A model generated the notes under the pieces. That model saw nothing but the letters and a program-made list of their open reading frames with translations, was not told where the DNA came from and did not search any database. From NCBI RefSeq assembly GCF_030384885.1, contig NZ_CP128613.1: a DNA stretch of 64,000 nt; one strand, 5' to 3'. This document shows positions 29,532 to 29,664 of the stretch, one piece after another; the stretch's first letter is position 1; every line of letters starts with the position of its first letter. The position numbers and the translations under genes were made by a program. This DNA comes from Escherichia coli. GTDB taxonomy: Bacteria > Pseudomonadota > Gammaproteobacteria > Enterobacterales > Enterobacteriaceae.

Positions 29532-29566
29532 GATGCTCTCCCAAATATGAAATCTCTTGCTGGCAT

Positions 29567-29583
29567 TACAAGAATCATGCCAA
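29567..29583 (-). promoter_or_regulatory. Sigma-54 (-24/-12) promoter candidate for pspG
   Basis: Minus-strand sequence TTGGCATGATTCTTGTA fits TGGCA-N6-TTGC(A/T) spacing; located about 40 bp upstream of the pspG start. Confidence 0.6.
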
Positions 29584-29664
29584 AACTAATCTATTGATTT
29601 AACAGCAAAACGCCCCGCGACGGTGCGCAGGGCGTGGTGAATTTGACTACTTTTTGGTGAAAAG

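Follow-up and report, generated by a model that had tools for sequence, protein, structure and literature searches.

The 133-bp spacer between dusA and pspG in this stretch of Escherichia coli DNA almost certainly holds an enhancer-dependent sigma-54 promoter that serves pspG and is the second one in the PspF (phage-shock) regulon. The case for it is built on the promoter elements, all of them present and conserved in position, on their scores, and on near-identity to a K-12 promoter for which sigma-54 occupancy has been published. The promoter itself is already known: it has counted among the characterised promoters of the PspF regulon since 2004, and genome-wide maps of sigma-54 include it. 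As a discovery it matters little, but the analysis shows that a real sigma-54 promoter was recognisable from sequence alone, without tools, and it gives every element in the spacer a compact annotation. Two small additions may be of use to specialists. Firstly, a lone half-site, a palindromic enhancer (UAS), the dusA terminator, an IHF site and a -24/-12 element with GT keep their internal spacing fixed across about 80 species that range from Escherichia to Yersinia and Brenneria. Secondly, the sigma-54 transcript is predicted to include the sRNA PspH.

Locus and gene context

Within the window, by which we mean the whole 64-kb stretch of DNA that was analysed, the ORF list gives the gene order dnaB, qor, pspG, dusA:

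26642..28057, minus strand: dnaB (ORF list)
28032..29123, plus strand: qor (ORF list)
29289..29531, minus strand: pspG coding sequence, 80 aa, including the stop codon (ORF list; RefSeq 'envelope stress response protein PspG')
29538..29542, minus strand: Shine-Dalgarno sequence GGGAG, 6 nt before the pspG ATG (read from the sequence)
29665..30702, minus strand: dusA coding sequence, upstream of pspG on the same strand (ORF list, annotation)

The interval 29532-29664 is exactly the 133-bp spacer that runs from the dusA stop codon (29667-29665) to the pspG ATG (29531-29529). The identity of the downstream gene is clear, with an 80-aa product 100% identical to E. coli PspG and a pspG annotation carried by more than 5,400 genomes. 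A 601-bp query spanning the site found matches in 5,425 of the 5,426 complete E. coli genomes, and the features annotated there were pspG and dusA. On the K-12 map the positions are 4.26 Mb for pspG and 1.37 Mb for pspA, in agreement with an earlier reading of this DNA made from its letters (hereafter the sequence-only reading), which had described pspG as unlinked to pspABCDE.

Identity of at least 99% over 29200-29800 was found in only 9 of 5,427 matching records, and the window represents a minority E. coli lineage. The best match over this interval (100%) was strain 2013C-4282, from human stool, which has two hypothetical genes just past dnaB on the opposite strand. Upstream of dusA the window also carries an AT-rich ORF of 334 aa (31064-32068, minus strand) that appears intact, and its counterpart in this closest genome is annotated as a frameshifted DUF2713 family protein; we take this region to be the position of yjbL and yjbM in K-12.

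The sigma-54 core element

The central proposal of the sequence-only reading was a -24/-12 promoter on the minus strand upstream of pspG, with GG and GC-like elements at the expected spacing, and this proposal stands. The core and the start predicted from it are as follows:

29567..29583, minus strand: sigma-54 -24/-12 element TTGGCATGATTCTTGTA, a 17-mer (sequence, top PWM score, identity to the K-12 ChIP-seq site OS40, conservation)
29556, minus strand: predicted +1, 12 nt past the -12 position and 25 nt ahead of the pspG ATG (motif geometry)

Reading TTGGCATGATTCTTGTA from 29583 to 29567, GG occupies 29581/29580 (-25/-24) and the GC-like GT occupies 29569/29568 (-13/-12). The spacing is canonical (TGGCAY-N5-TTGY), and the two doublets lie exactly one helical turn apart, as in a sigma-54 promoter. 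Compared with the consensus TGGCAC-N5-TTGCW, the pspG core reads TGGCAT-GATTC-TTGTA and departs from it at two positions only, -21 and -12, each with T in place of C. The second of these gives GT in place of the consensus dinucleotide GC; it is near-invariant across species and is likewise found in pspA. Because it was counted 12 nt on from the -12 position, the start of pspG transcription in this strain would fall at 29556, and this prediction agrees with Bonocora et al. (2015), whose Table 1 places the predicted pspG TSS 25 nt from the gene.

According to one rival explanation, TTGGCATGATTCTTGTA might be a chance or non-productive sigma-54 match, with pspG transcribed by sigma-70 polymerase that starts at a promoter of the spacer or reads through from dusA. 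The frequency of the loose consensus gives this some room, since TGGCAYNNNNNTTGCW with at most one mismatch occurs three times in the window against 6.9 matches expected. A loose match in 64 kb is no rarer than chance and is uninformative for significance, and we therefore used a position weight matrix (PWM) in its place. The rival can also draw on the many sigma-54 binding sites of E. coli that have no known productivity (Bonocora et al. 2015, PMC4591121). The evidence that tells against it comes from conservation, from the spacer itself and from published work, and is given with each of these below.

The PWM was derived from the 41 ChIP-verified intergenic E. coli sigma-54 motifs that Bonocora et al. 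(2015, PMC4591121) list in their Table 1, with pspG omitted. Scored in this leave-one-out fashion, the pspG site reached 17.4 bits and ranked first among the 127,968 positions of the window, a positive outcome of the scan that the sequence-only reading had named as a check. Placed among the real sites it would rank 14 of 42, in the middle of their range. Dinucleotide-Markov simulations yielded about 0.16 matches of this score per 64 kb, from which simple arithmetic gives a chance expectation of about 1.5e-4 for the 117 spacer positions on the gene strand. The next-best matches in the window lie at 23860-23876 (minus strand) and 19035-19051 (plus strand); these sequences, CTGGCACAATTCATGTT with 14.9 bits and CTGGCGCGTAAGCTGCA with 14.5 bits, both score below the mean best score of random sequence of equal length (15.9 bits). 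For the matching part of K-12 (roughly 4.22-4.29 Mb), the tables of Bonocora et al. contain no high-stringency ChIP-seq site besides pspG.

The PspF enhancer and the IHF site

Upstream of the core, three further elements can be recognised on the same strand:

29635..29649, minus strand: PspF enhancer (UAS), the 15-bp imperfect palindrome TAGTCAAATTCACCA, -93..-79 (pspA-like form, conservation, PspF binding reported in PMC3709507)
29655..29661, minus strand: distal lone half-site TTCACCA, -105..-99 (pspA-derived pattern, fixed offset)
29587..29599, minus strand: IHF-type site AATCAATAGATTA, -43..-31 (perfect match to WATCAANNNNTTR)

An enhancer of a sigma-54 promoter is expected to lie roughly 80-150 bp upstream, which is where the 15-mer and the distal heptamer are situated. 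TAGTCAAATTCACCA is self-complementary at 10 of its 15 positions, exactly as are the two pspA palindromes TGATGAAATTCGCCA and TAGTGTAATTCGCTA. The distal TTCACCA is found 3 nt past the dusA stop codon, with the proximal heptamer 20 bp further downstream, and it lacks the left half of a palindrome (0 of 15 positions). As a pair the heptamers are distinctive: the pattern TTCRCYA-N13-TTCRCYA, taken from pspA, has a single match in the 64-kb window, located in the pspG spacer and free of mismatches. The distal half-site probably takes part in PspF contact as well. In the published count pspA has two UASs and pspG one (Mehta et al. 2013, PMC3709507); one full palindrome plus a half-site reconciles our reading with the 'one UAS' of pspG and fits the contrast of two UASs versus one.

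The IHF consensus is a common one, with seven matches in the window against 2.5 expected, and AATCAATAGATTA, which matches it perfectly, would be occupied by IHF. The sequence-only reading had proposed to look for PspF and IHF sites 80-130 bp upstream, and both kinds are present, with one refinement: PspF-UAS-like sites are found at -105..-79, and the IHF site lies nearer, at -43..-31, between the enhancer and the -24 element. Its broader claim, that pspG belongs to the PspF-dependent regulon, is supported by the pspA-like UAS, by the match to the IHF consensus and by the reported binding of PspF to the pspG UAS (PMC3709507). The arrangement as a whole is that of a PspF-regulon promoter, with UAS sequence related to that of pspA, an IHF-type site between UAS and core, and a psp gene downstream.

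Conservation across Enterobacterales

One genome per species was scanned with PspG, which gave 80 loci in Escherichia, Citrobacter, Salmonella, Enterobacter, Klebsiella, Raoultella, Kluyvera, Leclercia and other genera, reaching out to Yersinia, Rahnella, Biostraticola and Brenneria. In all 80 of them the best PWM match upstream of pspG is the orthologous TTGGCAYGnnTnTTGTA. When the loci were anchored on the -24 element without gaps, four conserved blocks emerged, corresponding to the UAS, the outer terminator stem with its T tract, the IHF core and the -24/-12 element; downstream of about -7, this anchored alignment shows no conservation.

The upstream elements are held at fixed offsets to TTGG in most of the 79 loci compared: the 15-mer palindrome in 66, the proximal heptamer in 74, the distal heptamer in 60 and the IHF core (-14/-15 from TTGG) in 75. 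Measured to the -24 element, the 15-mer is offset by 66-67 bp and the distal heptamer by 78-79 bp. The stretch between promoter and ATG, on the other hand, ranges from 34 to 190 nt across loci, and since the internal offsets stay fixed while its length varies, the regulatory module is conserved as a unit. A motif, a UAS and an IHF site kept at fixed spacing in about 80 species speak against the explanation by a chance motif. No match to the strict TTCRCYA pattern was obtained in Yersinia, Rahnella, Biostraticola and Brenneria; in some of these genera the sequences, when read directly, have the same TAGTC-N-TTGAC-type palindrome followed by a hairpin.

A dusA terminator between the enhancer and the IHF site

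The spacer contains one further conserved element, which belongs to the upstream gene and is situated between the PspF enhancer and the IHF site:

29610..29635, minus strand: dusA intrinsic terminator hairpin, a 10-bp stem followed by a T tract (terminator scan, fold, covariation)

Its RNA fold has an energy of -19.1 kcal/mol (z = -2.5), and among 40 enterobacterial sequences compensatory changes were found in 8 of its 10 pairs. Because the PspF enhancer is upstream of this terminator, it lies inside the dusA transcription unit and is transcribed with the dusA 3' UTR. As both the enhancer and the half-site fall within this unit, dusA transcription could modulate PspF occupancy at pspG.

The terminator bears on transcription of pspG by sigma-70. 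Read-through is geometrically possible, with dusA directly upstream of pspG on the same strand in 79 of the 80 species loci. Between dusA and the promoter, however, stands the covarying hairpin with its T tract, and with a conserved dusA terminator in its way, read-through is an unlikely origin for pspG mRNA, although some of it may still reach pspG. The other route open to sigma-70, a promoter of its own in the spacer, finds no counterpart in the sigma-70 promoter scan, which returned no sigma-70-like promoter on the minus strand of the spacer. Together with the conserved spacing and the published evidence described below, this makes the chance or sigma-70 explanation very improbable.

The terminator also gives rise to a second rival, according to which the upstream block (29661..29635) is conserved merely as the 3' end and terminator of dusA and is not a PspF enhancer. 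The two features are indeed intertwined: the first bases of the left arm of the terminator stem, from 29635 onward, are shared with the right half of the UAS (…CACCACG), and the distal heptamer begins only 3 nt past the dusA stop codon. Yet the left half of the palindrome and the distal heptamer lie outside the hairpin, and the block matches the UAS sequences of pspA, which have no relation to a terminator. The offset of both sites to the -24 element is fixed as well, and PspF binding to the pspG UAS has been reported (PMC3709507). We consider this second rival even less probable than the first, and the two together account for only a small remainder beside the reading as a PspF-dependent sigma-54 promoter.

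Published evidence and proposed mechanism

The spacer differs from that of K-12 MG1655 by a single substitution, G at 29586 where K-12 has T, located between the IHF site and the -24 element. As this one base is outside every element, K-12 data transfer directly to the window. The 2004 study of Lloyd et al. is reported to have shown the dependence of pspG on sigma-54, PspF and IHF, as well as its negative control by PspA.

The most direct evidence comes from genome-wide mapping. TTGGCATGATTCTTGTA is site OS40 in Table 1 of Bonocora et al. (2015, PMC4591121), a sigma-54 ChIP-seq peak in K-12 that is 15-fold above threshold, listed with a predicted TSS 25 nt from pspG and with the flag 'C', which stands for experimentally confirmed in EcoCyc. 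In the same study, overexpression of sigma-54 raised pspG, one of five genes with an upstream intergenic sigma-54 site. The orthologous TGGCATGATTTTTGTAAG of Salmonella LT2 was enriched in sigma-54 ChIP-chip, and in gSELEX the reconstituted sigma-54 holoenzyme selected the dusA-pspG spacer in vitro.

For the activator, Mehta et al. (2013, PMC3709507) state, citing earlier work, that the UASs of the pspA and pspG promoters are bound by PspF, and they found that deletion of PpspG alters PspF dynamics and raises basal pspA expression. Four papers (PMC3709507, PMC2763126, PMC3041696, PMC4591121), all citing Lloyd et al. 2004 (J Biol Chem 279:55707), describe the K-12 gene as induced by secretin or membrane stress, PspF-dependent and PspA-repressed. 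A promoter that figures in the literature as experimentally confirmed and PspF-regulated is hard to reconcile with a chance motif or a sigma-70 start. The same holds for the finding, reported for K-12 according to the citing papers, that pspG is no longer induced when rpoN or pspF is mutated or when the -24 GG is changed to TT.

Taking these elements together, we propose the following mechanism. Sigma-54 RNA polymerase would bind TTGGCATGATTCTTGTA (29583..29567) and form a closed complex that does not open by itself, while PspF, an AAA+ enhancer-binding protein, would bind TAGTCAAATTCACCA (-93..-79) and probably also contact TTCACCA at -105..-99. An IHF bend at AATCAATAGATTA (-43..-31) would bring PspF to the polymerase, and ATP hydrolysis by PspF would then open the promoter, with transcription starting near 29556, 25 nt before the pspG ATG. 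It is well established for the Psp system that PspA inhibits PspF when the membrane is not under stress, and in unstressed cells PspA would be expected to keep PspF inactive at this promoter too.

Transcript extent and PspH

The predicted start also has implications for what lies at the other end of pspG, where two features are found:

29122..29232, minus strand: pspH sRNA (pspG 3' UTR), K-12 b4758 (K-12 annotation mapped by alignment; identical to K-12)
29153..29131: bidirectional terminator at the pspH end

A terminator scan found no terminator-like site between the pspG stop codon (29289) and the terminator at 29153..29131. Since pspG and PspH have no intervening terminator, PspH would be part of the PspF/sigma-54 transcript, which is predicted to be about 435 nt long. 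An Rfam scan of 28900-29900 gave nothing above threshold, its sub-threshold matches falling on the qor/pspH terminator hairpin only. PspH is an Hfq-associated sponge of Spot 42 (Spf) and may also have a promoter of its own (PMC5145812). Were PspH made from the sigma-54 transcript, envelope stress would be connected to the Spot 42 carbon-metabolism network through 3' UTR processing. The two extensions of the textbook picture, envelope stress feeding the Spot 42 network via PspH and dusA transcription modulating PspF occupancy at pspG, are speculative and rather unlikely.

Comparison with known promoters

The closest known system is the pspG (yjbO) promoter of K-12 itself, pspGp in EcoCyc and OS40 in the ChIP-seq data. 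It is the same locus, with no difference in the 17-mer, the UAS, the half-site, the terminator, the IHF site, the 5' UTR or the start codon.

The second is the pspA promoter, which we compared element by element using the pspF-pspA spacer of K-12. The sequence-only reading had suggested this comparison, and the architecture proved close, including the unusual GT at -12. The pspA core TTGGCACGCAAATTGTA and the pspG core have the common form TTGGCAYG-N5-TTGTA, and the peculiarity of GT at -12 of pspA was pointed out earlier (Huvet et al. 2010). Both promoters also have 15-bp imperfect palindromes ending in TTCRCYA, with heptamers 20 bp apart. The differences are in number, distance and loop content. 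While pspA has two full palindromes, TGATGAAATTCGCCA (-126..-112) and TAGTGTAATTCGCTA (-106..-92), pspG has one (-93..-79) and a lone half-site, so that its enhancer is 13 bp nearer to the promoter. The IHF-type site of pspA, AATCAAAAAGATA at -45..-33, has one mismatch, whereas that of pspG is a perfect consensus. Finally, the loop holds the dusA terminator in pspG, whereas in the case of pspA there is overlap with the divergent pspF promoters.

A global MAFFT alignment of the two promoters was discarded, as it paired the pspG -24 element with the unrelated upstream CTGGCATG in the pspF-pspA spacer. That spacer contains, between the pspA UAS and IHF site, a sequence that resembles a -24 element and has no proper -12 (CTGGCATGTTGCTGTTG, positions 1954-1970 of the K-12 locus L001). 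The resemblance is probably fortuitous, and it is because of this sequence that the global alignment was mis-registered.

The third is pspG of Salmonella. In Salmonella Typhimurium (STM4244), the orthologous TGGCATGATTTTTGTAAG is bound by sigma-54, and two loci from Salmonella subspecies (L014 and L031) have the UAS, terminator, IHF site and core in the same order as E. coli. Salmonella differs in having about 34 extra nucleotides between promoter and ATG, with a gap of 68-69 nt compared with 35 in E. coli, and in one subspecies locus (L031) the dinucleotide at -12 is the consensus GC, unlike the GT of E. coli.
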